DNA of 64,000 nucleotides from Gammaproteobacteria bacterium (GCA_040882865.1 JBBEAN010000003.1:33085-97084), one strand, 5' to 3'. Positions 46,884 through 63,150 are shown, counted from the stretch's first letter. Numbers and translations are program-made. Notes: generated by a model from the letters alone, not told the origin.

Positions 46884-47618
46884 TTGGCCATGCCTGACTT
46901 TCCGAAGCCTGATCATAACCAGCTCCTCTCGACGCTCACCGCGGCAGAGCGCGAACGTCTGTATCCGCACATGGAACTCGCGACCGTTTCATTGGGCCAA
47001 GTGCTACACCAACGCGGCGCCGACATAGAAGATGTCTATTTTCCGACAGACTCAATCGTTTCATTGCTGTACGTGATGGACGATGGTGCCTCCGCCGAAA
47101 TCTCAGTGGTCGGGCACGAGGGTGTCACGGGCGTCGGTCTGTGTATGGGCGCCGATATCTCCGCGAGCCAGGCGGTCGTCCAAAGCGCCGGCTATGCGTA
47201 TCGACTGCCGGGCAGCGTCCTGCGCGATGAGTTCCGCCGTAACGGCAGCCTCCATGACTGGATTCTGCGCTACTCACAAGCGCTGCTCGCGCAGATCGCG
47301 CAGACCGCGGTCTGCAACCGCCACCATACGGTCGACCAGCAACTGTGTCGCTGGGTGTTGTTGTCGCTCGACCGGCTGCCGACCAACAAACTGATCATGA
47401 CGCAACAACTCATCGCGAATATGTTGGGCGTACGTCGCGAGGGTGTCACCGAAGCGGCTGGCAAGTTGCAGAAGCTCGGCGTCATCCGATACAGCAGAGG
47501 ACGCATCACGGTGATCGACCGACCCCAGCTCGAAGCACTCTCATGCGAGTGTTACTCGGTGGTGAAGCGAGAGTTCGACCGGCTCGTCGCCACCCCGTAT
47601 ATCCGACAATCCGCCTGA
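46884..47618 (+). CDS. Crp/Fnr family transcriptional regulator (paralog 1)
   Basis: cNMP-binding-like barrel (VYFPTDSIVSLLYVMDDGASAEISVVGHEGVTG) plus a C-terminal HTH (MTQQLIANMLGVRREGVTEAAGKLQKLGVI). It ends with SCECY. Confidence 0.88.
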   Translation: MAMPDFPKPDHNQLLSTLTAAERERLYPHMELATVSLGQVLHQRGADIEDVYFPTDSIVSLLYVMDDGASAEISVVGHEGVTGVGLCMGADISASQAVVQSAGYAYRLPGSVLRDEFRRNGSLHDWILRYSQALLAQIAQTAVCNRHHTVDQQLCRWVLLSLDRLPTNKLIMTQQLIANMLGVRREGVTEAAGKLQKLGVIRYSRGRITVIDRPQLEALSCECYSVVKREFDRLVATPYIRQSA

Positions 47619-47628
47619 GGAAGATTCG

Positions 47629-48354
47629 ATGCCATCACATTCTCCCCACAATCACTTGCTCGATGCGCTGACAATCGACGAGAAGGACCGCCTGTTTCCG
47701 CACCTGGAATGGGTGCCGCTCGGACTCAGTGAGGTCCTGTATGAAACGAATAAGAAGCAGCACTGCGTCTATTTTCCGACCAGCGCAATCATCTCGCTGC
47801 TTTACGTGACCGAGGACGGTGCCTCGGCGGAAATCTCGATGGTCGGTAGCGAGGGCATGATTGGCATCGCACAGCTGACCGGTGACGGCACCATGCCGAA
47901 CCGTGCGGTCGTGCACAGCGCGGGCCATGCTTACCGCATCAAGGGTCACCTGTTGAAGCGAGAATTCTCCCGCAAAGGTCGGTTGCACGACATGTTGCTC
48001 CGCTACTCACAAACGCTGTTCGCTCAGACCGCGCAAACCGCCATGTGCAACCGTTTCCATACGGTGGACCAGCAACTCTGCCGCTGGCTGTTACTGTCAT
48101 TTGACCGGCTCGGCACCGATGAAATGGTCATGACCCAGGAGTTGATCGCAAACATGCTTGGCGTTCGCCGCGAGGGCGTCACGGAAGCGGCCGGCAGACT
48201 GCAGAAGGCGAACGTGATTCGCTATCGACGCGGACATATCCAGATGCTCGACCGTCTGCGGCTGGAGAAAAACTGCTGTGAGTGTTACGAGGCCGTCAAA
48301 GTCCAGACCGCGCGCTTGCTCGACATGAATCTACTGGACATGACTCAGCAGTAG
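47629..48354 (+). CDS. Crp/Fnr family transcriptional regulator (paralog 2)
   Basis: Colinear with paralog 1 and roughly half identical by eye. It has the same HTH and a CCECY motif near the C-terminus. Confidence 0.88.
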   Translation: MPSHSPHNHLLDALTIDEKDRLFPHLEWVPLGLSEVLYETNKKQHCVYFPTSAIISLLYVTEDGASAEISMVGSEGMIGIAQLTGDGTMPNRAVVHSAGHAYRIKGHLLKREFSRKGRLHDMLLRYSQTLFAQTAQTAMCNRFHTVDQQLCRWLLLSFDRLGTDEMVMTQELIANMLGVRREGVTEAAGRLQKANVIRYRRGHIQMLDRLRLEKNCCECYEAVKVQTARLLDMNLLDMTQQ

Positions 48355-48410
48355 CAACTTCGTTCGATACCGTACTGACAGCGACTGCCGCGCGGGGTAA
48401 TAAGCACATC

Positions 48411-49835
48411 ATGAAGCCAATACTCGCATTCGCGCTCGCCGCGACACTCCTTTTCGCCGCCTCCTGCTCGACGAACCCGGTCACGGGCCAAAGCCAGCTC
48501 GCACTTGTTTCAGAGAGCCAGGAAATCGAAATCGGTCGTCAAACCGCGGCGGCGGCCGAGGCCCAGATGGGCCTGGTCGATGACCCTGCTCTGCAGGAAT
48601 ACGTTCAGCGCATCGGCATGGTGATGGCGCGGGCGTCCGAGCGTCCTGAGCTGCCATGGCACTTCGGCGTCATCGACGACCCGACGCCCAACGCGTTCGC
48701 TGCGCCAGGTGGGTTCATCTATGTGACACGCGGCATGCTTTCCCTGATGAACAACGAGGCGGAGCTTGCGACTGTAATCGGACACGAGATTGGTCACGTG
48801 ACCGCGCGCCACTCTGTTGCCATGATCAGTCGGCAACAACTCGCACAAATCGGCCTCGGACTGGGCTCGGTGCTGAGCCCAGAAATCGCACAACTCGGCG
48901 AGCTCGCAAGCGCCGGGCTGTCGATGCTGTTCATGAGCTACGGTCGCGATGCGGAACGCCAGGCCGACGATCTGGGTTTCGGCTACGCGCTCGCGCAAGG
49001 CTACGACGTCTCACAGATGACCGATGTATTCGCATCGCTGCAACGTATCGGCGAGGCATCCGGCCGAAGCCCGGTACCCGCGTGGATGTCGACGCACCCG
49101 TACCCGGAAGAGCGCATCGTGCGTATCCAGAATCGTCTCGCGGGCGCAACTCTGCCGCTCGGCGCACGCGCGGGCGAAGACGAATACATGGCGCGTGTCG
49201 ATGGCCTGCCGTATGGCGAGAACCCGCGCAACGGTTACTTCGAAAACACCCGCTTCGTCCATCCAGACATGCGTTTCCAGGTCAATTTCCCGCAAGGTTG
49301 GATGACCCAAAACATGGCGCAGGCCGTAATGGCGGGCAGCCCGGACCAGGATGCCATCGTGCAACTTTCGCTCGCAAAAGGCACTCCCCAGGAGGCCGCG
49401 GCCGCGTTTCTCGGCCAGCAGGGGATTACGGCCGGCCCGGTGAATACGCGCTCGGTTAACGGCCTCAATGCCGCAACGGCGGAGTTCCAGGCACAGACCG
49501 AGCAAGGCGCGCTCGCCGGCGCTGTCAGCTTCATCACGCTCGACGAGCATACGTTCGGGATCGTTGCATACACCGGTGCGGATCGCCTCCCAAAGTACGC
49601 TGCTGCGTTCCAGGGTGTGTTTGATTCCTTCGGACGTCTGACCGACCCGCAGGCACTCGCGGTGCAAGCACCGCGCCTCTCGGTGATGCGCACGCCGAGG
49701 GCGATGTCGCTGCAGCAATTCAACGCGAGCTACCCATCGACCATTCCGCTCGACGAGCTTGCGCTCGTGAACCAACTCGTCGACGGCTCTGCGCTGATTC
49801 CCGCGGGCGCTCACGTAAAACGCGTGGTCAATTAA
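48411..49835 (+). CDS. M48 family zinc metallopeptidase lipoprotein
   Basis: Lipobox LLFAASC and the zinc motif VIGHEIGHVTARH. I trimmed it to ATG 48411 because the track ORF start overlaps the upstream regulator gene. Confidence 0.88.
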   Translation: MKPILAFALAATLLFAASCSTNPVTGQSQLALVSESQEIEIGRQTAAAAEAQMGLVDDPALQEYVQRIGMVMARASERPELPWHFGVIDDPTPNAFAAPGGFIYVTRGMLSLMNNEAELATVIGHEIGHVTARHSVAMISRQQLAQIGLGLGSVLSPEIAQLGELASAGLSMLFMSYGRDAERQADDLGFGYALAQGYDVSQMTDVFASLQRIGEASGRSPVPAWMSTHPYPEERIVRIQNRLAGATLPLGARAGEDEYMARVDGLPYGENPRNGYFENTRFVHPDMRFQVNFPQGWMTQNMAQAVMAGSPDQDAIVQLSLAKGTPQEAAAAFLGQQGITAGPVNTRSVNGLNAATAEFQAQTEQGALAGAVSFITLDEHTFGIVAYTGADRLPKYAAAFQGVFDSFGRLTDPQALAVQAPRLSVMRTPRAMSLQQFNASYPSTIPLDELALVNQLVDGSALIPAGAHVKRVVN

Positions 49836-49912
49836 GTGGGCCACCGCACGATTCTCCGCCGCGGAAATCGCTAAGGTTGGACTCCTCCCAATAAATCTAC
49901 CGGAGTTCAATC

Positions 49913-50215
49913 ATGCGCACGACCCCCTCTGCACAGAACGGCGAGCAACTCGACAGAAAGGTCGACCGTGCAGCCGACCAAGCCCACGACAAGATCGACC
50001 AGGCCTCGAATGCGGCACAACCGGCTGTCGATCGGCTCGCCGGAAAGGCCCACAACATGGTCGACAAGCTCGAAGCGAAAGGCGAGCAGTGGATGGAAGC
50101 CGAAGAAGAGATGATGGGCGAGATTCAGGCCTACGTCCGCCAACATCCGCTCCAGTCAGTCGGTATTGCCGTGGCCGGCGGCTTCCTCCTGAGCCGCATC
50201 CTCAGCTCAAGATGA
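49913..50215 (+). CDS. DUF883 (ElaB/YqjD/YgaM) family membrane-anchored stress protein
   Basis: 100 aa with a hydrophilic helical N-terminal part plus the C-terminal TM PLQSVGIAVAGGFLLSRIL. GGAG lies 9 nt upstream. Confidence 0.85.
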   Translation: MRTTPSAQNGEQLDRKVDRAADQAHDKIDQASNAAQPAVDRLAGKAHNMVDKLEAKGEQWMEAEEEMMGEIQAYVRQHPLQSVGIAVAGGFLLSRILSSR

Positions 50216-50565
50216 CCCCCGCACACCCCGGGCTTCTCGACGAAGCCCGGTTGCTGTTCACGGAAGCCCGTGGCCTCGCCCACGATCGGCTGAAGCTCGC
50301 CGCACTCGAGACCCGCCTCGCCGGGCAGAGTGTCGTCAGGATGCTCATCGCCGGGGTCGTCGCGGCGGTGATGGTAATCAGCACCTGGCTCGCGTTGGTG
50401 GGTATGGGCGTCGTCGCGCTCGTGGTCTACGGCGGCCTGACCGCGATCGCCGCGCTGGGCATCGCAGCGGTAGTCAACGCCGCCGCCGCCGCCGCGCTTT
50501 ATTTCGCGATCCGCAAGATGTCCCAGAACCTCGCTTTCCCACGAACCGTCGGAGGGCCGCACTGA
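50212..50565 (+). CDS. YqjE-like (phage holin family / DUF1469) membrane protein
   Basis: 117 aa and 2 TM helices, with an ATGA overlap to the DUF883 gene. The order matches E. coli yqjD-yqjE-yqjK. Confidence 0.75.
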   Translation: MTPAHPGLLDEARLLFTEARGLAHDRLKLAALETRLAGQSVVRMLIAGVVAAVMVISTWLALVGMGVVALVVYGGLTAIAALGIAAVVNAAAAAALYFAIRKMSQNLAFPRTVGGPH

Positions 50566-50981
50566 TGGGCCTGAAACACGAAGTCGCCGAGGCCGAACGT
50601 CAGGTCGAGATTCGTAGCGCACAACTGCAGGAGCACCTCTACGAGCTGCGGCACTCCTGGCGTTCGCGCATCAATCCCCGCGCGCTGGTGCTTGTGGGTG
50701 CCGCGGCCGGCGTCGTACTTGAGCAGTTCATCCGATATCGGAGCCACAAGCCCGTTGTCTACGAGTTGGCCCCCGGCGATGACCGACCACCACAGAAGCG
50801 CAGCAAGCACCGCATTTCGAGGGCCGCGCGCGCGCTACACTTATTGCCCATCGCGCAGCTCGCGGTGAGGAAATGGCTGTCGCGCGAAGCCGAACGCGAC
50901 GAGCGCGATCAGAGCCCGCGCTCGATCAACTTCGCGGACCATTCCATTACGCGCAAGGGTAACGGTCTCTCGCGCCATTGA
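50565..50981 (+). CDS. YqjK-like protein
   Basis: 138 aa with a coiled-coil N-terminus and one TM (ALVLVGAAAGVVL). It is the third gene of the yqjDEK-like unit, and its last 73 nt overlap the convergent cls gene. Confidence 0.6.
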   Translation: MGLKHEVAEAERQVEIRSAQLQEHLYELRHSWRSRINPRALVLVGAAAGVVLEQFIRYRSHKPVVYELAPGDDRPPQKRSKHRISRAARALHLLPIAQLAVRKWLSREAERDERDQSPRSINFADHSITRKGNGLSRH

Positions 50982-52378
50982 GCTAGCGGAACTCGGTCCG
51001 AATGCGCTAAATCGTCCGCGAACATCGCTTCCATTTCTCCCGCGAATTCGCGCCCAAGGATGACGGCATTCAGTTCGTCATTGTAGAGAAAGCTGCGCCA
51101 GTCGATGTTGCTTGAACCCACGGTCGACCAGACGCCGTCAATGACGGCGGTTTTCGCATGCATCACGGAGCCACGTCGTTCGAAAATTCTTACGCCGGCC
51201 TCCAGCAACTCCTCATAATAAGAACGACCGACGTGGAAAATGGGCCAACTGTCGCTGTTTGCCGGCATGATCAACTTGACGTCCACGCCCCGCGCCGCCG
51301 CTCCCTTCAACGCGTCGAGAAACTGTTCGTCCGGTGCGAAGTAAGCGATGGTAAGGTAAACGCTGTGCTCCGCGGACTGGATCGCCGCGAGCAAAGTCAA
51401 ATAAATAACACTGCGCTCGTCGTCCGGGGTGCTGCCAATCGCACGCACAATCTCGTCGCCGTGCGCGCGGAGCTCGGGGAAATAGGCACGATCGGGCAGG
51501 GGAGGCCCGTCCTGTTCAGTCCAGGTCTCGTGGAACAGCCGCTGAAACTCCGCTACAACGGGGCCGCTGATTTGCAGATGCGTGTCCCGCCATCCGGCAG
51601 GCCGTGCTGACGGCTTCCGTGAGCGGCTCATGAAGCTGCCGCTCGAGTACACCTCACTGATGTTGATGCCCCCGACGAACGCCGTGGCACCGTCGATGAC
51701 GAGCAACTTGCGATGGCCGCGGTGATTGAACTTCAGCGAGCGGGACTTCGGCGACAGCGGATTGATTGGGTTGAACTCGACGAGCCGAATACCGCCGTCG
51801 CGCAAGCGGTCGAAGAATTCTGTCGGCGTCTCGAGCGTAGCGAAACTGTCGTAAATGAGATTCACTTGGACGCCGTCGGCTTGTCGCTCGAGCAACAGGT
51901 CGGCGAACTCGCGCCCGACGTCGTCATCCTCGAAGATGTAGGTCTGCAGATTGATGTGGTCGGTTGCGGCCCGGATAGCTTTCATCATCGCCGCATACGT
52001 TGCGGGCCCGTCCTTCAGCAGACGGAGACGGTTACCACCGACGAGCGGACTGTCGGCGTTGATCGCCTGCTCGACCAACATGTGGCGGCCGAGAATGCCG
52101 CCCCCTTCTTCGGACTCTGTGACGATTTTCGGTGCAAGATGGGCCACGCGAAATTCCTTTTCGGCGTCAGGGAGCGCGGCGCAACCGTTGGTGGTCAACA
52201 ACAGCGCCACGACAAACGTGCCGACAACGCCGCAGAACCAGTAAGCCAGGGAGAGCCACCATCGGCGGCCCTCCCCGGACCGGACCGGTACCTCAGCTGA
52301 TCGTGAGCCCGCTTGCGTCCACGTTGCGGACACCACGGATGTTTTCCGCGAGGTCAATTGCGAGTTCCTTCTCATCAT
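50909..52378 (-). CDS. cls: phospholipase D family cardiolipin synthase
   Basis: Two HKD motifs (HRKLLVIDGATAFVGGIN and HAKTAVIDGVWSTVGSSN) and an N-terminal TM helix. No alternative start lies downstream of the BON stop. Confidence 0.88.
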   Translation of the reverse strand: MMRRNSQLTSRKTSVVSATWTQAGSRSAEVPVRSGEGRRWWLSLAYWFCGVVGTFVVALLLTTNGCAALPDAEKEFRVAHLAPKIVTESEEGGGILGRHMLVEQAINADSPLVGGNRLRLLKDGPATYAAMMKAIRAATDHINLQTYIFEDDDVGREFADLLLERQADGVQVNLIYDSFATLETPTEFFDRLRDGGIRLVEFNPINPLSPKSRSLKFNHRGHRKLLVIDGATAFVGGINISEVYSSGSFMSRSRKPSARPAGWRDTHLQISGPVVAEFQRLFHETWTEQDGPPLPDRAYFPELRAHGDEIVRAIGSTPDDERSVIYLTLLAAIQSAEHSVYLTIAYFAPDEQFLDALKGAAARGVDVKLIMPANSDSWPIFHVGRSYYEELLEAGVRIFERRGSVMHAKTAVIDGVWSTVGSSNIDWRSFLYNDELNAVILGREFAGEMEAMFADDLAHSDRVPLAQWRERPLPLRVMEWSAKLIERGL

Positions 52379-53261
52379 CGTTGTTGACTTCGCCGCTCAG
52401 CTTGACGACGCCCTCATCGACGTCCACGTCGATGTCGAACGCGCTCACCCAGCGCGACGTCATCAGGCTCGCTTTCACCTTCGTCGTGATCCAGGTATCG
52501 GACACTTCGTTGGTCAGGCTGTCCTCTTGTTCCGGTTCGTTCGCCTGCACGGTCTGGTCGACGATCGGGGCGCCGGACGATACCGTGCCGCTCGCGCCTG
52601 CCTGGGCGAGCGAGGTCGCACCCGCGTCTTCGTGGAAGTCGGCGTCAACTTCGATTTCGTTCACGACTGAACGGACACCGTCCGTGTTCGATGCGAGCTC
52701 CTCTGCGGACTGCTTCGCCTCTTCCGTCGTCGCGACGCCTGACAGCGTGACGACGCCGGCCTCGGTGGTGACGTTGGTGTTCAGCGCCTCAGCATCACGG
52801 CTCCAGAGAAGCTTGCCTTTCACCGATGCGGTGAGTACTGCGTCGTCGACGCGGTCACCGAAACTGCGGTCACCGTCTGCGCGGACCTCGGCCGTGTACT
52901 CCTCGTCGACTTCGATCTGGTTGTCGACCTCGTCGATTCCGTCGGCATTCATCGCGAGCGACTCCGCGAGATCCTTGTGGACCTCATCGCTCACCGTTCC
53001 GGACAGCGTCGCGGTGTTCTCCTCGACCTTGACGTCGATGTCACTTGACCGCAGCTGACGGTTCAGCGCGAAGGTGGTGGAAATCTGGCTCTCCTTACGC
53101 GCGGCGCTGACCTTACTGTCGGTTTCCACCGACACCCGGGCTTCGTCGCCCTTGTGGCGCTTGTCGCGTTTGTCGTCGTCACCTGCGAAGGCGTTGCCGG
53201 CGAGCGCCGTTGCCAACACCAGGCATGACGCCGCGGCTGCGCTGCGTGTGTAGATAGTCAT
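52293..53261 (-). CDS. secreted BON domain-containing protein (OsmY-like, three BON repeats)
   Basis: Signal peptide AASCLVLATALAGNAFA and three BON units (e.g. VKVEENTATLSGTV, VTTEAGVVTLSGVA, VDVDEGVVKLSGEV). GGAGG lies 6 nt upstream of the ATG. Confidence 0.88.
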   Translation of the reverse strand: MTIYTRSAAAASCLVLATALAGNAFAGDDDKRDKRHKGDEARVSVETDSKVSAARKESQISTTFALNRQLRSSDIDVKVEENTATLSGTVSDEVHKDLAESLAMNADGIDEVDNQIEVDEEYTAEVRADGDRSFGDRVDDAVLTASVKGKLLWSRDAEALNTNVTTEAGVVTLSGVATTEEAKQSAEELASNTDGVRSVVNEIEVDADFHEDAGATSLAQAGASGTVSSGAPIVDQTVQANEPEQEDSLTNEVSDTWITTKVKASLMTSRWVSAFDIDVDVDEGVVKLSGEVNNDDEKELAIDLAENIRGVRNVDASGLTIS

Positions 53262-53289
53262 GTTGTACCTCCATATGGTTGGAAATAAT

Positions 53290-53327
53290 CCTTGCCCGGT
53301 ACACGCCGTAGTGGCGGCCGGGCAAGG
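53290..53327 (-). terminator. strong hairpin between the PRC-barrel gene and the BON gene
   Basis: CCTTGCCCGG (53290-99) pairs with CCGGGCAAGG (53318-27), a perfect 10-bp stem. On the minus strand it is followed by AUUAUUUCC. It ends only 17 nt before the BON Shine-Dalgarno sequence. Confidence 0.5.
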
Positions 53328-53452
53328 AGGTTTTCAGGACGTTCGACTGGCGGGCGGACACCCTCGCGGCTGATTGCGCAGCGCGCCTGGATGCGTGCCG
53401 CCAGTCTTTTCGCTGTACCCTTGATCACGTCCTTGATCATGTGGGTCGTGGT

Positions 53453-53845
53453 TCAGTGGTGGGTGGCGGTTCCGTAATACGAGCGAACCTTGTTGGCCCA
53501 CACTTCGTCCCGCATATTGGGCCAGTCATCCTTGTCGAAACCCGGCGCATCCTTCAGCCGGTCCTTTTCCACGTTGAGCAGAAAGCGTTTGTTCCGCGTA
53601 TCGAGTATCAGCGCGCTCCACGGTACAGCGAACAGCTTGTCCGCCATGCCGAGGAAGCCGCCGAATGACAGGACCGCATAGGCGACGGAGCCATCGCTCA
53701 TGTCGAGCATGATCTCCTTGATATCACCGAGACCTTCTTCCTTATGGTTGAAGACGTCGGTGCCTATGAGGGTATCCGCGCCCATCAACTCCGGACCAGG
53801 GCCCTCATCGCGGCGCTTGTACATGCCGTGCGCGTCGCGGTCCAT
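53453..53845 (-). CDS. PRC-barrel domain-containing protein
   Basis: LIGTDVFNHKEEGLGDIKEIMLDMSDGSVAYAVLSFGGFLGMADKLFAVPW is a typical PRC-barrel stress protein. I prefer ATG 53845 over the track GTG 53854. Confidence 0.85.
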   Translation of the reverse strand: MDRDAHGMYKRRDEGPGPELMGADTLIGTDVFNHKEEGLGDIKEIMLDMSDGSVAYAVLSFGGFLGMADKLFAVPWSALILDTRNKRFLLNVEKDRLKDAPGFDKDDWPNMRDEVWANKVRSYYGTATHH

Positions 53846-53850
53846 GTAGT

Positions 53851-54030
53851 TCACCGCCGCTCCTCGCGGAACTCTTCCTTGGCATCGCCGTAACCCTTGC
53901 GAACACTGCCGGCAGTTTTCTCGACCTTACCTTTCGCTTCAAGGCTACGATCTCCGGTCACCCGGCCGGTGACCTCTTTGGTCTTGCCTTTCGCTTTTTG
54001 AAGGGTGCCTTTACCTTGCTGCTTGTTCAT
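53851..54030 (-). CDS. CsbD family general stress protein (59 aa, below the ORF-track cutoff)
   Basis: Hand translation gives MNKQQGKGTLQKAKGKTKEVTGRVTGDRSLEAKGKVEKTAGSVRKGYGDAKEEFREERR. GGAGG lies 4 nt upstream, and the stop is 5 nt before the PRC-barrel ATG. Confidence 0.8.
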   Translation of the reverse strand: MNKQQGKGTLQKAKGKTKEVTGRVTGDRSLEAKGKVEKTAGSVRKGYGDAKEEFREERR

Positions 54031-54106
54031 TTTGCCTCCAGATGTTCGAGCTTGACGTTCATGATGGCCGCGTCAGGGCGACGGGTCGGTACGAAAGCTA
54101 ACAGTG

Positions 54107-54319
54107 CTATTCCATCTCCTCGTCGGCGTCTCTTGCGGAAGCTTGGCGGCCCGCGAGGTTCTCGCCGCGATCACGTGACTGCTGGTTCTCGCGCTGGTTT
54201 TCGTGCTGCGTGCCAGCTTGCTGCTGCTGCTTGCCGGGCTGTGCGGGCTGGTCCGTCTGGCCCGGTTTGCCCTGCTGTTGCTGGTTCGGGTTCTGCGTAT
54301 TGTTGTTGCGGTCTTTCAT
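54107..54319 (-). CDS. Gln/Asn-rich hydrophilic, probably disordered small protein (70 aa)
   Basis: MKDRNNNTQNPNQQQQGKPGQTDQPAQPGKQQQQAGTQHENQRENQQSRDRGENLAGRQASARDADEEME. GGAGG lies 8 nt upstream of ATG 54319. It has no hydrophobic core, and I recognise no family. Confidence 0.6.
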   Translation of the reverse strand: MKDRNNNTQNPNQQQQGKPGQTDQPAQPGKQQQQAGTQHENQRENQQSRDRGENLAGRQASARDADEEME

Positions 54320-54492
54320 TGTTGCGCCCTCCTTCAAGGGTTGCGTATGTGGATGCGAATCAAGAGTGTTCCCGGCGGGGATTGTCGTCGGTTCGTCAGG
54401 TCACATTCGTTGCCTTGCGAACTGAACGGTGGCGGGCATATTTGAGATGCTCAACCAATTCACCTGCACCAAATAGAGGGCAATGCACGATC

Positions 54493-55119
54493 ATGGAAAC
54501 AGCAAAGCACAAATTGCCACAGCTCTCGTATGCGTACGACGCGCTGGAGCCACACATCGATGCACAGACGATGTCTGTACACCACGGCAAGCACCATGCG
54601 TCCTATGTCTCGAAGTTGAACGAGTCGTTGGACAAAGCGCCCGAACTGAAATCGAAGTCCCTCGAATGGCTGCTCACGCACCTGGACGAAGTGCCGTCCC
54701 GACTAAGGACGTCCGTGCGCAACAACGGCGGCGGGCATTTGAACCACACGATGTTTTGGCAACTGATGTCACCCGACGGTGGTGGCGATCCGGCAGGTGC
54801 GCTCGCGGAGGCAATCACCCGCGATTTCGGAAGCGTTGATGATTTTCGCGGCGAGTTTGAGGCGCTCGGCGCGAAAGTTTTCGGATCAGGATGGGTGTGG
54901 CTCGCGACTGGGCCTGACGGCAAGCTCAGCATCGTCACGACCGGCGGTCACGACAACCCCCTCATGGATGGGCTGACGCCGGTCTTGGTGAACGACGTCT
55001 GGGAACATGCGTACTACTTGAAGCATCAGAACCGTAGACCCGACTACCTGTCCGGCTGGTGGGCCGTTGCCGATTGGCACGCAGCCGGTGAGCACTACCA
55101 GCGCGCTTCAGCCCAATAA
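54493..55119 (+). CDS. Fe/Mn-family superoxide dismutase
   Basis: LPQLSYAYDALEPHIDAQTMSVHHGKHH ... NNGGGHLNHTMFW ... DVWEHAYYLKHQNRRPDYL. I trimmed it to ATG 54493 because the long track ORF from 53998 has no support upstream. Confidence 0.93.
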   Translation: METAKHKLPQLSYAYDALEPHIDAQTMSVHHGKHHASYVSKLNESLDKAPELKSKSLEWLLTHLDEVPSRLRTSVRNNGGGHLNHTMFWQLMSPDGGGDPAGALAEAITRDFGSVDDFRGEFEALGAKVFGSGWVWLATGPDGKLSIVTTGGHDNPLMDGLTPVLVNDVWEHAYYLKHQNRRPDYLSGWWAVADWHAAGEHYQRASAQ

Positions 55120-55122
55120 AAT

Positions 55123-55148
55123 GGGCCAGGGCGGCGACGCCCTGGCCC
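55123..55148. terminator. bidirectional intrinsic terminator between sod and the sortase operon
   Basis: GGGCCAGGGCG-GCGA-CGCCCTGGCCC forms an 11-bp perfect stem. On the minus strand it is followed by AUUUUAUU. Confidence 0.7.
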
Positions 55149-55166
55149 TACATCACGATTGCCCGT

Positions 55167-55850
55167 TTACTTGGCTTGGAAGCGACGGCGCAGGCCGACA
55201 CCGATGCCGCCGAGTAGCGACAGTGCACCACCGATCGCGAGCCACGGAAGCGGGCCGGCGGTCGCCGGAAGCTGCGCAAGCACCGGGTCTGCGTCATCCG
55301 GACTTGCGGAACGCTGTGAGCTGCCGCTGCCCGCCTGCGCATACATGCTGGAACGGGCGCCGGGGTCGCCATCCGAACTGACCCCCGCGACCTGGTTCAT
55401 CGGGGCGCCGGGCAAGCTGGCGAAACCGTAATGCCCTTCTGGTACATAAAGGTTCACACGCTGGCCGCGCGTGAGTTGGTCGAACGGCGTCCGGCGCTCG
55501 TTGATGTAGGCGACCTGACCGGGGGCCGGCTCGATCGTGACGTCGCCGAGATTCCCGCTGTACCGATTGCGGATCTGGAACCGCACTTCACCGTCTTCCT
55601 CGACTTCCTCGAAGCTCGCCGAGAAGCGCGCCCAAGTTTTGCCGTCGACGACGACGGCTTCTTGACACGCGTCCACGATGTTCGGGTAGGCGGCTTTGAG
55701 TTCATCGCTCCACTCGACTTCGTTGCAGGTCGCCGGACGCGTGCGTTCTGGCGGCAGTTCCTCGACGGGTAGCTGCTGGGCGACAACTGCGCCCGCGCAG
55801 GCCAATCCGACGAGCGTCGCCACAGTCTTGACTCCAGTTTTTCTCTTCAT
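55167..55850 (-). CDS. secreted protein with C-terminal LPXTG-like sortase sorting signal
   Basis: Signal peptide TLVGLACAGAVVAQQ. The C-terminus is LPATAG, a hydrophobic stretch PLPWLAIGGALSLLGGIGVGL and the basic tail RRRFQAK. It lies 12 nt downstream of a sortase gene. Confidence 0.8.
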   Translation of the reverse strand: MKRKTGVKTVATLVGLACAGAVVAQQLPVEELPPERTRPATCNEVEWSDELKAAYPNIVDACQEAVVVDGKTWARFSASFEEVEEDGEVRFQIRNRYSGNLGDVTIEPAPGQVAYINERRTPFDQLTRGQRVNLYVPEGHYGFASLPGAPMNQVAGVSSDGDPGARSSMYAQAGSGSSQRSASPDDADPVLAQLPATAGPLPWLAIGGALSLLGGIGVGLRRRFQAK

Positions 55851-55862
55851 ATCCCTCTCCTC

Positions 55863-56456
55863 TCAGTTGATGGCGACCGCGCGCACGATATATCGCTGTG
55901 GCGCACTGCCGACGAAATAAAATGGATAGCAGGTGACGAGCGTCAACGCAGGTTCATCGGTTGGGTACAGCGAGGACACATCCGTTGGCTCGACCACGGC
56001 CAGATCGGTGATCCGGTAGCGGCGCGTACCTGCCTGATGCTCGACTTCAATCTCGTCGCCGAGCACGACGTCCTTGAGTCCGCGAAAATGTCCATCACGG
56101 TGTGCAGCGATGCCGGCGTTGCCATTGCTGCCCGGCGCCGCGGTCCCCTCGATCGCGCCGGCGCCCCGGTTGAGGTTGCGCTCGCTCGTATCGCTGAAGA
56201 CCGGCACTTCGATTCCGGCGCTCGGTACGCGCAATACCGCGAGGGGTATCCCCGCGCTCGCATCACGGTAGGCTGCAACACGCGATTCGGACCAAGCGGA
56301 CTGGTCGGGTATGCCGACTTCGAGGGTGCGCCGGTCATCAAAGGCCTCGAGTGCGTCGCGTCGCTCGACTTCGCCGTGGGTACGGGCACCCGCATAGGTG
56401 GCAAGCAGGCCTATCCCAACGACTATGAGGACAATTTCGAGCAGTTTCGTTCGCAT
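55863..56456 (-). CDS. sortase (Gram-negative / class GN type)
   Basis: N-terminal TM anchor, catalytic His (GIAAHRDGHF), the TLVTC Cys motif (LTLVTCYPF) and a conserved Arg (RYIVRA). Confidence 0.85.
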   Translation of the reverse strand: MRTKLLEIVLIVVGIGLLATYAGARTHGEVERRDALEAFDDRRTLEVGIPDQSAWSESRVAAYRDASAGIPLAVLRVPSAGIEVPVFSDTSERNLNRGAGAIEGTAAPGSNGNAGIAAHRDGHFRGLKDVVLGDEIEVEHQAGTRRYRITDLAVVEPTDVSSLYPTDEPALTLVTCYPFYFVGSAPQRYIVRAVAIN

Positions 56457-56569
56457 CGGTCTGCTACTTTGACGGCCGCGCGGCTGAGCTTCCGTGCGGT
56501 ATCGCCCCTAAGGTGAGTGCGTGTGGTCCCGTACATACTGGGCGTCTGCTTCGGAGGTAGCGTGACCCC

Positions 56570-57277
56570 ATGCAGAACCGCCTGTTAGCAGCCCTGCCGC
56601 CGGATGAGTCCGCGCGTCTAGATCCGCACCTCACACTGGTGCCCATGACGCAGGGCATGGTCATCGACGACGCCGAGGACCATCTGTACTTCCCGGTCGA
56701 CTGCGTGGTCGCACTCCTTTACGAGCTCAGCGACGGCGCGAGCGCAGAGATTTCCTTGGTCGGCAATGAGGGCGTTGCGGGCATTGGATTATCGATCGGC
56801 GGAATCCCGACCCTGAACCGCGCCGTGGTCCAGACCGCCGGACACGCGCAAAAAGTCCGTGCGACAGTGCTGCACGAAGAATTCAACCGGGACGACAAAC
56901 TGCAACGACTCCTCTTTGGCTACACGCGCGCATTGTTCGCACAGATGGCCCAAACCGCCGCATGCAACTTGAGCCACCCGGTCCATCAACGCATGTGTCG
57001 CTGGATGCTGCTCACGCTCGACCGCGTTGTGTCGGACCGGCTCGTGATGGAACGTGACCTCGTCGCGTCCATCCTCGGCGTGCCGACGCATGAGGTCGAC
57101 GACGCGGTCGCGAAGCTCGCGCGCCTCGGCGCAGTCAGCGGTTCGCGCTCGCAAATGACCGTCCTCAACCGACCGCAACTCGAACGGCTCTGCTGCGAGT
57201 GTTATGCGCTCGTGAAGCACGAATCAGAGCGACTGTTGCACCCGGTCTCCCACCACAAACTTCGATCGATTATCTGA
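56570..57277 (+). CDS. Crp/Fnr family transcriptional regulator (paralog 3)
   Basis: MQNRLLAALPPDE... has the same architecture as paralogs 1 and 2 and carries a CCECY motif. Confidence 0.88.
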   Translation: MQNRLLAALPPDESARLDPHLTLVPMTQGMVIDDAEDHLYFPVDCVVALLYELSDGASAEISLVGNEGVAGIGLSIGGIPTLNRAVVQTAGHAQKVRATVLHEEFNRDDKLQRLLFGYTRALFAQMAQTAACNLSHPVHQRMCRWMLLTLDRVVSDRLVMERDLVASILGVPTHEVDDAVAKLARLGAVSGSRSQMTVLNRPQLERLCCECYALVKHESERLLHPVSHHKLRSII

Positions 57278-57279
57278 CC

Positions 57280-58026
57280 GTGAACAGACCCAGCGACAAT
57301 CCAGATTTCAGGCAATCAACGGCGACACCGCCGCCCCGTTTCGGGGGCGAGACATCGTCCTCGACGCTCTTGAACGAGCGCCTCGCCGCGCTGCCGCGCC
57401 ATGACCGTGACGCGATGCTCGAGCAATCCACGACCGTCGAATTGAAACTCGGCGAGGTACTCGCCGAGGCGGGCCAACCCGCGGCTTACGCCTACTTTCC
57501 CGTCGGCGGAATAATTTCGTTACTTGCGTCGGTCGACAAGAAGACCACGCTTGAAGTGGCCCTGGTCGGCTTCGAAGGGATGCTGGGGCTGTCGCTCGCA
57601 TTGGGCGCCGAGGGCGCTCCGTTGCGGGCGCGGGTCCGCGCCGCGGGCACCGCGCTCCGGATCGACGCCGCGACGTTCAAGCGTCTATTGGAGAACAGTC
57701 CGGAGATGCGTGCCGACCTGAATCGCTACGCGTGTGCCCAGCTCGCCGCAATCGCGCAGACCGCCGTCTGCACGCGCTTCCACCTCGTCGAGGAGCGGCT
57801 CGCGCGCTGGTTGCTGATGATCCATGACCGCGCGGGCAGCGACCACCTCGAGCTCACGCACGGTCTTCTCGCTGAAATGCTCGGGGTCCGCCGCAGCGGC
57901 ATCACGACGGCCGCGGGCGTGCTCCGTCAACGCGGCTTCATTAAGTACACGCGCGGCGACATCACGATCGTTGATCGGGAGGGTCTTGAAGCCGCCAGCT
58001 GCGCCTGCTATCGAATTGTTCGTTAG
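57280..58026 (+). CDS. Crp/Fnr family transcriptional regulator (paralog 4)
   Basis: Same barrel plus HTH (LTHGLLAEMLGVRRSGITTAAGVLRQRGFI), ending in SCACY. The start is uncertain. GTG 57280 lies right after the paralog 3 stop, and the track ATG 57199 would overlap it by 79 nt. Confidence 0.8.
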   Translation: MNRPSDNPDFRQSTATPPPRFGGETSSSTLLNERLAALPRHDRDAMLEQSTTVELKLGEVLAEAGQPAAYAYFPVGGIISLLASVDKKTTLEVALVGFEGMLGLSLALGAEGAPLRARVRAAGTALRIDAATFKRLLENSPEMRADLNRYACAQLAAIAQTAVCTRFHLVEERLARWLLMIHDRAGSDHLELTHGLLAEMLGVRRSGITTAAGVLRQRGFIKYTRGDITIVDREGLEAASCACYRIVR

Positions 58027-58092
58027 CGCACGGACCGCCCAAGTCTGCTGCCGTACCTTCTAAAACGTCAAAACAATTGAAGGGCGAGCGTC

Positions 58093-58239
58093 ATGTTAGA
58101 AACGATTGTCATCATCCTGTTGGTTCTCTGGGTGCTCGGGCTCGTCTCGTCATACACGATGGGCGGACTCATCCACATCCTGTTGGTGATCGCCATCGTG
58201 ATCTTTTTGCTGCGGGTCATCCGCGGACGGAGGGTTTGA
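58093..58239 (+). CDS. lmo0937 family small membrane protein (48 aa, below the ORF-track cutoff)
   Basis: Hand translation gives MLETIVIILLVLWVLGLVSSYTMGGLIHILLVIAIVIFLLRVIRGRRV, which matches the family pattern (GGLIHILLVIA...RGRRV). Confidence 0.75.
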   Translation: MLETIVIILLVLWVLGLVSSYTMGGLIHILLVIAIVIFLLRVIRGRRV

Positions 58240-58240
58240 A

Positions 58241-58462
58241 ATGGATGGATTACGGATACTCGCAATCGCGCTGTTGATCGGCGGTACGCTCGCGCTCGTT
58301 TACGGCGGTTTCACGTACACGAAAGACCGGGATACTGCAGACCTTGGGCCCCTCGAGATCTCGGTCGAAGACCGTGAACGCGTGAATGTCCCGGTCTGGG
58401 CGGGCGTAGCGGCAATCGTAGCCGGTGGGCTGATTCTCGTGGGGGCTGGCCGCAGACGGTGA
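58241..58462 (+). CDS. small two-TM membrane protein
   Basis: 73 aa with two hydrophobic helices flanking an acidic loop. It starts 2 nt after the lmo0937-like stop. Confidence 0.6.
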   Translation: MDGLRILAIALLIGGTLALVYGGFTYTKDRDTADLGPLEISVEDRERVNVPVWAGVAAIVAGGLILVGAGRRR

Positions 58463-58478
58463 TGCTAGAATCTGGCGG

Positions 58479-59090
58479 ATGAAATCCCTTCCCCGCCTGC
58501 TGTTGACCGGCCTGCTCACGCTGCTGCCGGTCGTCGTCACAATCGCAATCCTCGCTTGGCTCGCCTCGTCTCTCGAGGCGATGCTGGGCGGCCTCATCGC
58601 ATGGCTGCTTCCGGACGGCGCGTACCGCGCCGGCATGGGACTCTTCGCCAGCCTCTTCCTGATACTCGCGCTAGGCGCGATCATGACCACGTGGCTCGCA
58701 CAGCAATTGCTCGTGATGTTCGAGCGTGCGATGTTGCGCCTGCCGGTCATCAACAGCCTGTACGGTGCGGTGAAGGACGTGACCGCCTTGTTCTCCCCAG
58801 AGAGCAAGCGCCAGTTCAATTTGGTCGTGACTTTCACGCTGCCGGGCACCGACTCGAAATTGATTGGTTTCGTGACGCGGGAGGACTGCTCCGACCTGCC
58901 GACCGGGCTCAATGACCTCGGGATGGTCGCGGTCTACTTGCCCATGAGCTATCAGGTCGGCGGGTACATGCTATTCCTGCCGCGCGACCAACTCGAGCCA
59001 CTGAACATGCCCACCTCAGACGCATTGCGGTTCGTACTCACCGCCGGCGTCACGCGCTCAGCGAAGCCCACCGCGTCGAGCGACGGTTAG
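58479..59090 (+). CDS. DUF502 domain-containing membrane protein
   Basis: LLTGLLTLLPVVVTIAILAWL ... GFVT ... VYLPMSYQVGGYMLFLPRD is a typical DUF502 layout. Confidence 0.8.
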   Translation: MKSLPRLLLTGLLTLLPVVVTIAILAWLASSLEAMLGGLIAWLLPDGAYRAGMGLFASLFLILALGAIMTTWLAQQLLVMFERAMLRLPVINSLYGAVKDVTALFSPESKRQFNLVVTFTLPGTDSKLIGFVTREDCSDLPTGLNDLGMVAVYLPMSYQVGGYMLFLPRDQLEPLNMPTSDALRFVLTAGVTRSAKPTASSDG

Positions 59091-59780: not shown

Positions 59781-60962
59781 ATGAACGCACTCACTCGATT
59801 GCTCTGCACCGCGGCGCTCGTCGCCGTGACCGTGTTCGCGAACTCCGCGGCGGCGGCCGACGAACCCATTTACACACAGGCCGAGCTCGACCAGATGCTC
59901 GCGCCCGTCGCACTGTATCCCGACACGGTCCTCACCCACGTACTGATCGCAGCGACCTACCCCGTGCAGGTCGTGAGGGCTGCGCGCTGGTCGGCCGAGA
60001 ATCCCGGGCTCGAGGGTGATGCCGCGCTCGCTGCGGTCGACGACCGCGACTGGGATGCTAGTGTGAAGGCGCTCGTCGCATTTCCGGAACTGCTCGCACG
60101 GATGAACGAAGACCTCGAGTGGACGCAGCGCATCGGCGATGCGTTCCTCGTGCAGGAAGCTGCTGTGTTGGATACTGTCCAGACATTACGCACGCGTGCG
60201 TACAACGCCGGCAACCTGAAGTCGTCGGAGCAAATTCGCGTGGTCCGCGAGCGTGAAACCATCGTGATCCAACCGACGGTCGAGCGAATCGTCTATGTGC
60301 CAGTGTACGACACTCGTGTCGTGTATGGCCCTTGGTGGTGGTCGGCGCATCCTCCGGTTCATTGGTCGTGGCCGGGCCGTCATTACAGTTCAGTCGGGTT
60401 CTACTGGGGTCATGGTGTGCATGTGCGGCCAGCGTTCTACTACAGCTCATTCCATTGGACGAACCGCCACATCGTCCGTGGCGGCGGCCATCGCTGGCAT
60501 CACCAACCTCGGTATCGCCAGCCGCACTACCGCCAGAGCTACGACCGTCCACGCGTGCGGGCGAACAAGCCGCCGGTTCGTCGCGGCGTCGTGGGCGCCC
60601 AGGATGGATTGCAACGACCGCCAGTGACGGCAGAGCGTCGTGCGACGAGCAGCCGCCCGTTCGTCCAGCAACGGCGTGCGACGAGCAGCCGTCCGGTCGT
60701 CACGAGTGCGCCGCGGTCGGTGAGTCGACCCGTGTCGTCGCCGGCGCGATCGGCGACACCTCGAGCTGCTGTGCCACGTGCGGTTACCCCTCGTGCTGCG
60801 ACGCCGCGTGCACCGCGCGCGTCGGTCAGAAGCCCCGCTGCGGGGAACGCGGTTCCGATGGCGAAGCCGACGGCACGCGCGCCGGCGCCGTCGAACCGAA
60901 GCGCGCCGGCCGCCGCGCCGCGCCAACAAACCAGTCGTCCGGCGCGTCAGAAGGACCGCTGA
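59781..60962 (+). CDS. DUF3300 domain-containing secreted protein with Arg/Pro-rich repetitive tail
   Basis: Signal peptide followed by LDQMLAPVALYPDTVLTHVLIAATYP, a DUF3300 hallmark. The tail carries RRATSSRPFVQQ / RRATSSRPVVTS and TPRA-type repeats. Confidence 0.8.
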   Translation: MNALTRLLCTAALVAVTVFANSAAAADEPIYTQAELDQMLAPVALYPDTVLTHVLIAATYPVQVVRAARWSAENPGLEGDAALAAVDDRDWDASVKALVAFPELLARMNEDLEWTQRIGDAFLVQEAAVLDTVQTLRTRAYNAGNLKSSEQIRVVRERETIVIQPTVERIVYVPVYDTRVVYGPWWWSAHPPVHWSWPGRHYSSVGFYWGHGVHVRPAFYYSSFHWTNRHIVRGGGHRWHHQPRYRQPHYRQSYDRPRVRANKPPVRRGVVGAQDGLQRPPVTAERRATSSRPFVQQRRATSSRPVVTSAPRSVSRPVSSPARSATPRAAVPRAVTPRAATPRAPRASVRSPAAGNAVPMAKPTARAPAPSNRSAPAAAPRQQTSRPARQKDR

Positions 60963-63150
60963 CGCCACCACTCCGGTCCAACTGTTGCAGCAGTCTTCGG
61001 ACCGCGGGGGGGCCTGAGAGATGGAACCGCGCAGCGGTCTCGGCGAGCCCGACGCGTACGGTATACGCAGATGACGGCATTACCCGGAACATGTCTTCGT
61101 CCGTCCAGTCGTCGCCGACACACAGCACGAATTCATGTGATTTTCCTTCGAGCCAATCAACCGCCGCGCTGCCTTTGTTCACGCCGGCCGCGCGCACCTC
61201 GATGACCTTGTTACCCTCAATGACCTGTACGTCGATGTTGCGCGTGAATCCGGTCAAGTCGTCGAGCAGTTCACGCGTGCGCATCGCGGCCTGCTCCGGA
61301 TCCGCCCGGCGGTAGTGCCACGCGAGTGAGAATTCTTTCTGCTCGAGGAGCGCGCCGGGTAGCCGATCGACGTATCGCTCGAGAATCGTTCGAATCCGGT
61401 CTTTCCATTCCGTCTCGATTGGTCGGCGCAAACGCCATTCACCGTCGACCGACCGCATCCACGCACCGTGCTCGGCGATCAGCGAGACGGGTAAATCACC
61501 GAACCATCGCTCCAGGTCGGCGCGCGGGCGGCCGCTGATGATGACCGCGTCGTTGCTCGGCCGGCGCCCAATGGCTTCAAGAAGTTCCAGTAGTTCGTCG
61601 TCCGGCGCCGCATTCGCTGGCTTGTCGGAGAACGGCACCAGCGTGCCATCGTAATCAAGCAGCAGCGCGCGTCGGTGTGCGCTGTCGAACGACTGAACCA
61701 ACTGCGCGCGCGTCTCTCCGGTCAGCCGCGTCGCACGACGCTCTGCGTCCCCCTTTTCCGAATCCGCCATTGCACCAGTGAAGTCTGCCGCCCATCGGTT
61801 GACGTCGTAGCGTCGCAAGCGGTCCTGCATCAATGCATTCCGCCGGACCTGCTCGTCGATGGGCATCTCCAGCGCGCGCGCAATCGCATCTGCGAATTCA
61901 TCTCCGTGGTACGGGTTGACCGTCAGCGCTTCAGGCATCTCCTTCGCTGCGCCCGCCATCTCGCTGAGCACAAGCACACCGGTCCGGTCGATGCGCGAAG
62001 CTACGAATTCTTTTGCGACGAGGTTCATCCCGTCGCGCAGCGGCGTAATCAACGCAACGTCGCACGCGCGATAGAGCGGGATGATTTCGTCGAACGGGAG
62101 ATTGCGGTACTGATAGACCAATGGCGTCCAATCGACCGTGCCGAACTCACCGATGATCGATCCGACGGTCTGCTCAATCTCCCGCTTCATCTGCCGATAG
62201 CTCTCTACCCCCGTGCGCGAAGGTGCGACCGAGACGAGAAACGTCACCTTGCCATGCCACTCCGGGTTCTGACGCAGAAATCGCTCGTATCCTCGCAATC
62301 GGTTGATCAGACCCTTCGTGTAGTCAAGCCGGTCGACGGAGAAAATCAGCTTCTGCCCGTGGCATTGTTCGCGCAACTTCGCGACCCGCTGCTCCGTTTC
62401 CTCGGATGCCGCCGACTCCGCGATGCGTGCATAGTCGATGCCCATCGGGAAACTATCGACACGCACCGCGCGGTCACCGATGGCGAGGCGTCCGAGCTTG
62501 TGCTCGTGGCCGACCGTTCTGAGCACGGACGTCAGGAAGTCGCGTGTGTAATCGTGCGTGTGAAAGCCAACGAGGCTCGCCCCAAGAACGCCGTTGATAA
62601 GCTCCGCGCGCCACGTCTCCGGCAAAAGCCGGAACAGCTCATACGACGGAAACGGAATGTGCAGGAAAAAGCCAATGGGCAGCGTCGGGAACCGCTGCCG
62701 GAGCATTTCGGGGAGCAGCATCAACTGATAGTCGTGCACCCATACGTGGTCGCCCGGCTCGAGCACGCCCGTCAGATGATCGGCAAACGCCTCGTTCACC
62801 CGCCGGTATTCCGCCCAGCCCTCGTCATCGTAATGAACCAGATTCTGGAAATAGTGGAAAAGCGGCCAGAGGGTCTTGTTGCAGAACCCGTGGTAAAAAC
62901 GCTCGATACTCTCCGGAGCCAGAAACACCGGCGACGCGTTGTACCCGCGCGCGTGCTCGCGCACGGCGTCGCGCTGATTCTGTGCGACGTGCGCGCCGGG
63001 CCAGCCGACCCAGAGGAATGGTTGCTCTGCCTGTTGCATATAGCTCCAGAGACCCGTCGAGAGGCCACCCGCACTCATTGTGAACTTCGGGGTCCGCCGT
63101 TCGAATGCCGTCGTGAACGGCAGGCGGTTTGAGACGACAACGAGGCGCAT
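60826..63150 (-). CDS. otsA: bifunctional trehalose-6-phosphate synthase (GT20) / trehalose-phosphatase fusion
   Basis: The N-terminus is [12 protein letters not shown]... with an OtsA core ([21 protein letters not shown]). The C-terminal HAD phosphatase has [11 protein letters not shown] and [10 protein letters not shown]. The last ~45 codons overlap the DUF3300 gene. Confidence 0.92.

Follow-up and report, generated by a model that had tools for sequence, protein, structure and literature searches.

The 64,000-nucleotide stretch of Gammaproteobacteria bacterium DNA analyzed here (GCA_040882865.1, JBBEAN010000003.1:33085-97084; hereafter the window, with positions counted from its first letter) contains, between positions 46,884 and 58,026, four open reading frames (ORFs) that encode proteins of the Crp/Fnr fold, each with a beta-roll, a dimerization helix, a hinge and a C-terminal winged helix-turn-helix (HTH). 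These four proteins, which we call regulators A to D, are part of a large uncharacterized Crp/Fnr branch that has a distinctive predicted cofactor site, a predicted operator and a conserved gene pair of two types. The ORFs and the two cysteine motifs that define the predicted site lie as follows, with residue numbers here and throughout being those of A:

46884-47618, plus strand: regulator A, ORF of 244 amino acids (aa), Pfam HTH_Crp_2 match at 2.8e-14
47313-47327, plus strand: hinge motif of A, C144-N-R-H-H148, placed from the sequence
47544-47555, plus strand: tail motif of A, C221-E-C223-Y224, within (S)CECY
47629-48354, plus strand: regulator B, ORF of 241 aa, 58% identical to A, starting 10 nt past the end of A
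48046-48060, plus strand: hinge motif of B, CNRFH
48277-48288, plus strand: tail motif of B, (C)CECY
56570-57277, plus strand: regulator C, ORF of 235 aa, HTH_Crp_2 match below cut-off
56963-56977, plus strand: hinge motif of C, CNLSH
57194-57205, plus strand: tail motif of C, (C)CECY
57370-58026, plus strand: regulator D, end at 58026 firm, candidate starts TTG 57370, GTG 57280 and GTG 57199
57769-57783, plus strand: hinge motif of D, CTRFH
58000-58011, plus strand: tail motif of D, (S)CACY

No ATG is offered among the candidate starts of D. The longest ORF, from GTG 57199, overlaps the end of C by 79 nt, GTG 57280 lies 3 nt past the C stop codon, and TTG 57370 gives the best alignment with the N-termini of A, B and C. 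An initial annotation, made from the sequence alone, had described a C-x-C-Y tail just after the HTH, a cysteine in the linker helix, and QQLCRW or QRMCRW in three of the four proteins, and each of these features was recovered: the tail reads SCECY, CCECY, CCECY and SCACY in A to D, the linker-helix cysteine opens CNRHH, CNRFH, CNLSH and CTRFH, and the CRW element is present in A, B and C, with ERLARW in D. The Pfam model HTH_Crp_2 (PF13545) matched A, B and D with E values of 1e-13 to 1e-16 and C at the borderline (26.6 bits against a cut-off of 27). Matches to cNMP_binding (PF00027) were weak (22-29 bits; cut-off 27.5), with D just above the cut-off and C not matched. An NCBIfam scan of the four proteins returned sub-threshold matches only (NtcA, FtrB, PRK13918) and no curated equivalog. 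The first 45 residues of all four proteins are free of cysteine, so that the N-terminal cysteine cluster of the FNR type is absent.

We modeled regulator A with AlphaFold2 on a 49-sequence alignment taken from its 120 closest homologues, with a mean predicted local distance difference test score (pLDDT) of 86.6 and a predicted template modeling (TM) score of 0.83. In this model beta-roll strands span residues 31-109, a long helix (122-144) leads through a short loop into a second helix (150-162), and the HTH (174-197) and a two-strand wing (201-210) are followed by two extra C-terminal helices (213-219 and 222-235). C144 is the end of the C-helix (122-144), H148 sits in the hinge loop before helix 150-162, and C221 and C223 are placed with a pLDDT of 89-96 at the junction of the two C-terminal helices. 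Foldseek aligned the model to GlxR, Mycobacterium tuberculosis CRP, Aliivibrio fischeri FNR, NtcA and Clr at TM scores of 0.62-0.70 and 12-20% identity, with a probability of 1.00 to GlxR, CRP, FNR and NtcA over 200-234 columns. A sequence search of the PDB found generic Crp/Fnr structures only; the best match, 3DV8, covered the HTH alone and no match reached the CxCY tail. Sequence similarity to DNR, of the heme-based class, was weak (E 2e-5).

The canonical contacts to cyclic nucleoside monophosphates (cNMPs), which the initial annotation had described as not obvious, are absent in two independent alignments. In a profile alignment to GlxR, the G-E and R-T of GlxR are opposed by G-V and T-P in the family. 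With hhalign, against Escherichia coli CRP, Glu72 of CRP falls opposite a gap and Arg82/Ser83 opposite S/A; the same alignment places the C144-H148 segment on the CRP hinge (residues 132-137) and equates R185-E186 of the family with R180-E181 of CRP. The beta-roll nevertheless has its own invariant residues, including F53-P54, G68, E72, G77, G80 and G83.

None of the 120 closest homologues of A deviates at C144, C221 or C223, and H148 and Y224 are invariant in the 49-sequence alignment. Among 150 diverse representatives that are mutually no more than 50% identical, C144 is present in 147, H148 in 148, and C221, C223 and Y224 in 144 each, the exceptions being mostly truncated proteins. The complete C-H-C-C-Y pattern is found in 464 of 488 sampled proteins; all four ligands are lost in 16 of the 488, two are lost in 2, and exactly one is lost in none. 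The conservation in orthologues on which the earlier proposal depended is thus present at all three depths of sampling (120 closest, 150 diverse and 488 sampled). No segment of the family is more conserved than the hinge (3.15 bits per column), and relatives in Acidobacteria that are 34% identical keep the full Cys/His set. The cysteine of QQLCRW, C155, behaves differently: it is present in 114 of the 150 representatives, is otherwise A, S or G, and varies independently of the four ligands, which by alignment places it outside the core set. The initial annotation had passed over H148, which is as conserved as the cysteines.

The set has been lost jointly in several separate instances. P0121, a 522-aa metagenomic representative in which two family domains are fused, has lost all four ligands in both halves (C replaced by G, H by S, C by G, and C by W or T), with C155 kept in the first half; it may be a covalently linked 'dimer' or a gene-calling artifact across a tandem pair. 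In a Rhizobium/Agrobacterium clade the ligands are likewise lost, with the pattern A-Y-x-T, and the three cysteines are missing from the Rhizobium etli, Sinorhizobium meliloti and Agrobacterium fabrum proteins, two of which keep the His. Because the four residues are kept or lost jointly across the sampled relatives, the aligned sequences indicate that Cys3-His, H148 included, behaves as one functional unit.

We consider it rather probable that the four residues also form one physical site. In the winged-helix topology the polypeptide comes back, after its last strand, to the vicinity of the N-terminus of the first helix; as that return point is here the hinge, and as the C-terminal helices are modeled with confidence, C221 and C223 would come to lie next to the hinge, and we infer from this topology that the four side chains are close in space. 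The set probably holds a bound metal or an iron-sulfur (Fe-S) center.

We compared 80 loci from other genomes, and in 49 of them the family is represented two or three times within 12 kb, usually by adjacent genes. Of the 54 members in the 80 loci that fall below 60% identity to A, 45 are of the D type, recognized by the signatures C[TN]RFH, GVRR[VA]GVT and [AS]CxCY. By these signatures the widespread conserved module is a pair of one A-type and one D-type gene. The A-type is the most conserved subtype, with 65-70% identity across beta- and gammaproteobacteria. Regulator B is a recent, lineage-specific, A-like duplicate, whose only orthologue in the 80 loci (75% identity) is in L001, a Pseudohongiellaceae metagenome-assembled genome. 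Of the two tandem duplications proposed in the initial annotation, the A/B duplication holds, while C and D represent the widespread A-type/D-type pair.

Regulator C is derived from the A-type and holds the A-type position beside D. Its recognition helix is degenerate, reading GVPTHEVDD where A has GVRREGVTE, and its wing is degenerate too. The small clade to which it belongs (P0271-P0281) shows the same changes, with RREGVTE in the recognition helix replaced by a variable P-x-x-x-V-D-D and RYSRG in the wing by SGSRS or similar, and it keeps the beta-roll, C144, H148, C155, C221, C223 and Y224. This pattern of substitution suggests that C probably no longer reads the operator and instead acts through protein-protein contacts as a modulator. 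The earlier idea of heterodimers or a cascade gains indirect support from this loss of DNA reading with the Cys/His set retained, but no asymmetric operators of the kind that heterodimers might favor were seen: half-site combinations fit independence (for example, 27 G/A combinations observed against 24.6 expected), which neither supports nor refutes the idea.

The operator was derived from 133 regions upstream of family genes in the 80 loci. The palindrome GTGCG-N4-CGCAC occurs in 24 of these regions against 4.4 expected from control regions, with related half-sites enriched too, and GT[GAT]CG-N4-CG[CAT]AC with at most one mismatch occurs in 97 of the 133, often as two sites. The resulting consensus, TGT[GAT]CG-N4-CG[CAT]ACA, is a CRP-like palindrome of 16 bp and differs from the FNR box TTGAT-N4-ATCAA. 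We made a position weight matrix (PWM) from the sites of other genomes only and scanned it over the whole 64-kb window, with 20 shuffles as the control. The six top matches are:

58014-58035: predicted operator AATTGTTCGTTAGCGCACGGAC, PWM score 19.8, the best in the window; overlaps the stop codon of D, center 68.5 bp upstream of a 48-aa membrane ORF
48358-48379: predicted operator CTTCGTTCGATACCGTACTGAC, PWM score 18.2; center 42.5 bp before the start codon of the M48 peptidase gene (48411)
56490-56511: predicted operator, PWM score 16.2; divergent sortase/regulator C promoter region, center 69.5 bp from the C start
56517-56538: predicted operator, PWM score 14.1; same divergent region, center 42.5 bp from the C start
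54085-54106: predicted operator, PWM score 11.9; center 65.5 bp upstream of a CsbD-like gene
49832-49853: predicted operator, PWM score 10.3; center 70.5 bp upstream of the DUF883 gene at 49913

All six sit in intergenic stretches of the island of genes around the regulators, with centers 42-71 bp upstream of start codons, and in the remaining 46 kb of the window the best match reaches 10.2. The top two scores (19.8 and 18.2) exceed the maximum of the 20 shuffles, 16.7. The two boxes before C and the CsbD box are conserved at orthologous places in loci L086 and L087, the counterpart of the CsbD box in L087 scoring 13.2. A simple count of GTGCG-N4-CGCAC with one mismatch over the whole window gave no excess (13 against 13.6 in shuffles). 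Taken from these patterns, the predicted box and its local regulon are in our judgment likely to be real. Between 46600 and 58600 no sigma-70 consensus promoter was found against 2.7 expected in shuffles; this absence from the 12-kb island would suit promoters that depend on an activator or on an alternative sigma factor.

The Cys-less regulators on the A. fabrum plasmid pAtC58 (L084) are flanked by boxes of this type as well, near a gene for a sigma factor of the extracytoplasmic function (ECF) type and catalase C, which indicates that the DNA specificity is older than, or independent of, the Cys/His set. At this locus (3753-7840) two Cys-less relatives stand beside genes for the sigma factor, catalase C, a ferritin-like protein and a 'general stress protein'. 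Strong GTACG-N4-CGTAC boxes, with scores of 16.3-17.0, precede one of the regulator genes, the gene for the sigma factor and a small hypothetical gene.

The genes of the island, between and around the two regulator pairs, are:

start 48411: M48 peptidase (Pfam), putative target
start 49913: DUF883 (ElaB/YqjD-like) gene (Pfam), putative target
within 48411-55119: YqjE/holin-3_6-like protein and a 138-aa ORF (Pfam and ORF calls), putative targets
within 48411-55119, minus strand: phospholipase D (PLD)/cardiolipin-synthase-like, triple-BON and PRC-barrel proteins (Pfam), putative targets
53851-54030, minus strand: CsbD-like protein of 59 aa, small ORF, putative target; Pfam CsbD at the same position in L086 and L087
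54107-54319, minus strand: Q/N/E-rich hydrophilic protein of about 70 aa, small ORF, putative target
54493-55119, plus strand: Fe/Mn superoxide dismutase (SOD; Pfam), putative target
55167-55850, minus strand: secreted protein of 227 aa ending in LPATAG, a hydrophobic stretch and RRRF (from the sequence)
55863-56456, minus strand: sortase (Pfam Sortase, 1.9e-29), divergent from regulator C
58093-58239, plus strand: 48-aa membrane ORF, directly downstream of the strongest predicted operator
58241-58462, plus strand: 73-aa membrane ORF, between the 48-aa ORF and the DUF502 gene
within 58093-59090, plus strand: DUF502 protein, downstream of D

The block between the regulator pairs (48411-55119) is syntenic in L086 and L087, and the neighborhood of SOD and stress genes noted at the outset is in this sense genuine. 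The CsbD-like and Q/N-rich small ORFs sit between the PRC-barrel gene and SOD; the product of 54107-54319 is extremely Q/N/E-rich and resembles a hydrophilin or desiccation protein, and a predicted operator lies between this ORF and the CsbD-like gene. The sortase and its substrate form a pair in a high-GC proteobacterial context, and the same pair adjoins the C orthologues of L086 and L087, which are 69% and 90% identical to C, respectively. The 48-aa membrane ORF may be akin to the small stress membrane proteins of the lmo0937 type. Further genes around the pairs encode a glycine-zipper lipoprotein, a DUF3300 protein and a fusion of OtsA and OtsB. The latter, a trehalose-6-phosphate synthase/phosphatase of 774 aa (60826-63150, minus strand), overlaps at its 3' end by about 135 nt with the Pro/Ala/Arg-rich tail of the convergent DUF3300 ORF (59781-60962, plus strand); one of the two ends is probably miscalled. 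A scan of 44-64 kb of the window against Rfam gave no matches.

The family is very large: A alone matches more than 8000 clusters at 90% identity, and for 6691 clusters at 50% identity a profile of the four proteins gives E values below 1e-30. Its hosts are beta- and gammaproteobacteria of soil and water and Acidobacteria, and in Burkholderia, Cupriavidus, Ralstonia and Pseudomonas it is carried by hundreds of plasmids and chromids; it is present in 345 plasmid records, 150 of them conjugative. Relatives carry the Joint Genome Institute (JGI) label 'CRP-like cAMP-binding protein', cAMP being cyclic AMP. One A-type gene, 68% identical, lies at 93782-94489 of NC_019202.1, a 103.5-kb Pseudomonas aeruginosa plasmid, or element resembling an integrative and conjugative element, from a cystic fibrosis airway isolate; together with the Burkholderia, Ralstonia and Cupriavidus copies, it suggests horizontal spread. 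The exact island is not widely conserved: by single-sequence phmmer, SOD was found in 6, BON in 7, PLD in 7 and DUF883 in 3 of the 80 loci. Elsewhere the neighbors are a variable stress set that includes OmpA-like and cyclic-glucan synthase-like proteins, desaturases, CsbD, BON, PLD and SOD.

From these data we propose, with a probability of roughly 40%, that these proteins are box-binding Crp/Fnr regulators of a stress island that work without cNMPs and use the Cys3-His metal center at the hinge as their switch. Under this proposal A, B and D would act as dimeric Crp/Fnr transcription factors on TGT[GAT]CG-N4-CG[CAT]ACA, and their targets would be the genes of an island for stress, desiccation and dormancy, among them those for the M48 protease, SOD, the DUF883, CsbD, BON and PRC proteins and small membrane proteins, as well as the C-D operon itself. 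Cyclic nucleotide would not be used; C144, H148, C221 and C223 would instead hold a single Fe-S or Zn center that anchors the extra C-terminal helix at the hinge and thereby sets how the DNA-binding domain is oriented. If the center were oxidized or lost, this clamp would open and DNA binding would switch, and C would modulate the other regulators, for example in mixed dimers with D. The presence and identity of the metal, the sensing role, the direction of regulation and the formation of heterodimers are all inferred here. We suggest tentatively, at somewhat less than even odds, that the site senses a signal and is not simply a staple. A more specific form of the proposal seems to us fairly unlikely: a labile 3Cys-1His center, such as a [2Fe-2S] cluster as in IscR and NEET proteins, would define a new sensory class of Crp/Fnr proteins, with the family-specific C-terminal helix clamped on the hinge, a widespread and often plasmid-borne regulon gated directly through the box by redox state, O2, nitric oxide (NO) or metal, and the A/D pairs and C-types serving as mixed-dimer modulators.

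Several points weigh against this proposal. The site could instead bridge subunits, or its residues could have separate roles, and the all-or-none pattern of ligand loss rests on few independent evolutionary events. The Cys-less alphaproteobacterial relatives have the same boxes beside their genes, and it follows that neither the fold nor DNA binding needs the Cys/His site; a dispensable site fits an added sensor but also a dispensable stabilizer. The beta-roll is itself well conserved, and a small molecule bound there may be the real signal. PWM matches of at least 12 bits number 4 in the window against 0-3 in the shuffles, and because this count is barely above the control, the argument for a regulon in the window depends on the positions of the matches and on the two top scores. 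The boxes may serve activation or repression.

The main rival, which we regard as somewhat unlikely, is a purely structural Zn site that stabilizes the junction of hinge and C-terminal helix and so holds the protein permanently in its DNA-binding conformation. Control would then be exerted through regulator abundance, with autoregulation and induction in stationary phase or under stress as described for Thermus SdrP, or through some ligand of the conserved beta-roll. Cys3-His is a common ligand set of structural Zn, the operators that precede the regulators' own genes would allow control by abundance, and the many invariant residues of the beta-roll resemble those of a ligand pocket. The retention of the set in the C-types, despite their apparent loss of DNA reading, likewise fits a role in folding. 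The Cys-less relatives with the same operator, however, have a fold that does not need the site, and the C-x-C spacing is more typical of Fe-S or Cu(I) sites (SoxR, NEET, CopY) than of structural Zn knuckles. The hinge, moreover, is the allosteric pivot of every characterized member, and an inert staple would be unexpected there.

A metal-free thiol switch appears quite improbable. In this reading oxidative stress would join C144 to C221 or C223 by a disulfide, inside one subunit or across two, and so turn DNA binding on or off, much as in the oxidation of CprK (Cys11-Cys200), FLP or FixK2. It would account for the conserved cysteines and would suit an island with SOD and stress genes, and thiol control has precedents among Crp/Fnr proteins, but it leaves the invariant H148 and the joint loss of His and Cys in P0121 and the Agrobacterium clade unexplained, and three Cys with one His make a ligand set, not a redox pair. 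An ordinary nucleotide-responsive Crp protein, binding cAMP, cyclic GMP or cyclic di-GMP (c-di-GMP) in a divergent pocket with its cysteines incidental, is very improbable, because the cassette Glu and Arg-Ser/Thr are absent in both alignments and it cannot be by accident that the rarest amino acid is conserved almost absolutely at three positions, whatever the weak PF00027 matches (D just above cut-off), the JGI label and the example of Clp and Bcam1349, Crp-fold binders of c-di-GMP, may say in its favor.

Crp/Fnr proteins are the textbook case of one fold adapted to many signals, among them cAMP, O2, CO, NO, 2-oxoglutarate and halogenated phenols. PDB sequence and fold searches, NCBIfam and the literature yielded no characterized member of this branch, which is weak evidence of absence given that literature coverage was incomplete and terms were matched literally. 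If our proposal is correct, the branch would comprise regulators of a mobile stress and persistence gene set in which Cys3-His replaces control by cyclic nucleotide, and such a site, placed directly on the hinge, would link a signal to the DNA-binding domain in a novel manner, through a metal or cluster. The operator predicted here and its targets (CsbD, BON, PRC, DUF883, SOD and PLD proteins, with trehalose synthesis nearby) would then offer a handle on how non-sporulating environmental bacteria switch to persistence and desiccation tolerance.

Among known systems, FNR and ANR share with this family the fold (Foldseek TM 0.65-0.70 to A. fischeri FNR), the lack of cNMP contacts and, as proposed here, the use of Cys ligands to control a palindrome-binding dimer. 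They differ in that the FNR ligands are an N-terminal C-x2-C-x5-C (C20, C23 and C29) plus Cys122, whereas here a C-x3-H at the hinge is combined with a C-terminal C-x-C; the FNR box is TTGAT-N4-ATCAA as opposed to TGTNCG-N4-CGNACA, and identity is 16-18%. The low-oxygen regulators of the Burkholderia cenocepacia lxa locus were considered as family members and rejected, being described as Anr-like with a TGA-N6-TCA motif (PMC3721108). E. coli CRP, GlxR and M. tuberculosis CRP have the fold and HTH in common with the family, as well as the outer TGT...ACA and 16-bp length of the box. Unlike CRP and GlxR, the family is without Glu72 and Arg82/Ser83, reads an inner half-site CG where CRP has GA, and has an extra C-terminal helix with CxCY.

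CprK (Cys11-Cys200), FLP and FixK2 resemble the family in having cysteines outside the ligand pocket, one of them in the DNA-binding domain, and redox-modulated activity; they have one or two cysteines at other places and no His, in contrast to the four co-conserved residues found here, which look like a metal-ligand set. SdrP of Thermus thermophilus (2ZCW), a stress and stationary-phase Crp/Fnr protein that uses no cyclic nucleotide, shows weak HTH similarity (E 0.003), but the sequence match is confined to the HTH and stops before the CxCY tail, and SdrP is regarded as constitutively active in its conformation. Outside the Crp/Fnr fold, IscR, the CDGSH protein mitoNEET and the zinc-binding anti-sigma motif of RsrA (H-x3-C-x2-C) have the same ligand composition in labile or redox-responsive sites. 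The folds are unrelated, and in the present family the order of the half-motifs is reversed, with about 75 residues between them. RsrA has its His and Cys three residues apart on a helix, and mitoNEET combines C-x-C with C-x3-H, a likeness in spacing only that we take as a lead.

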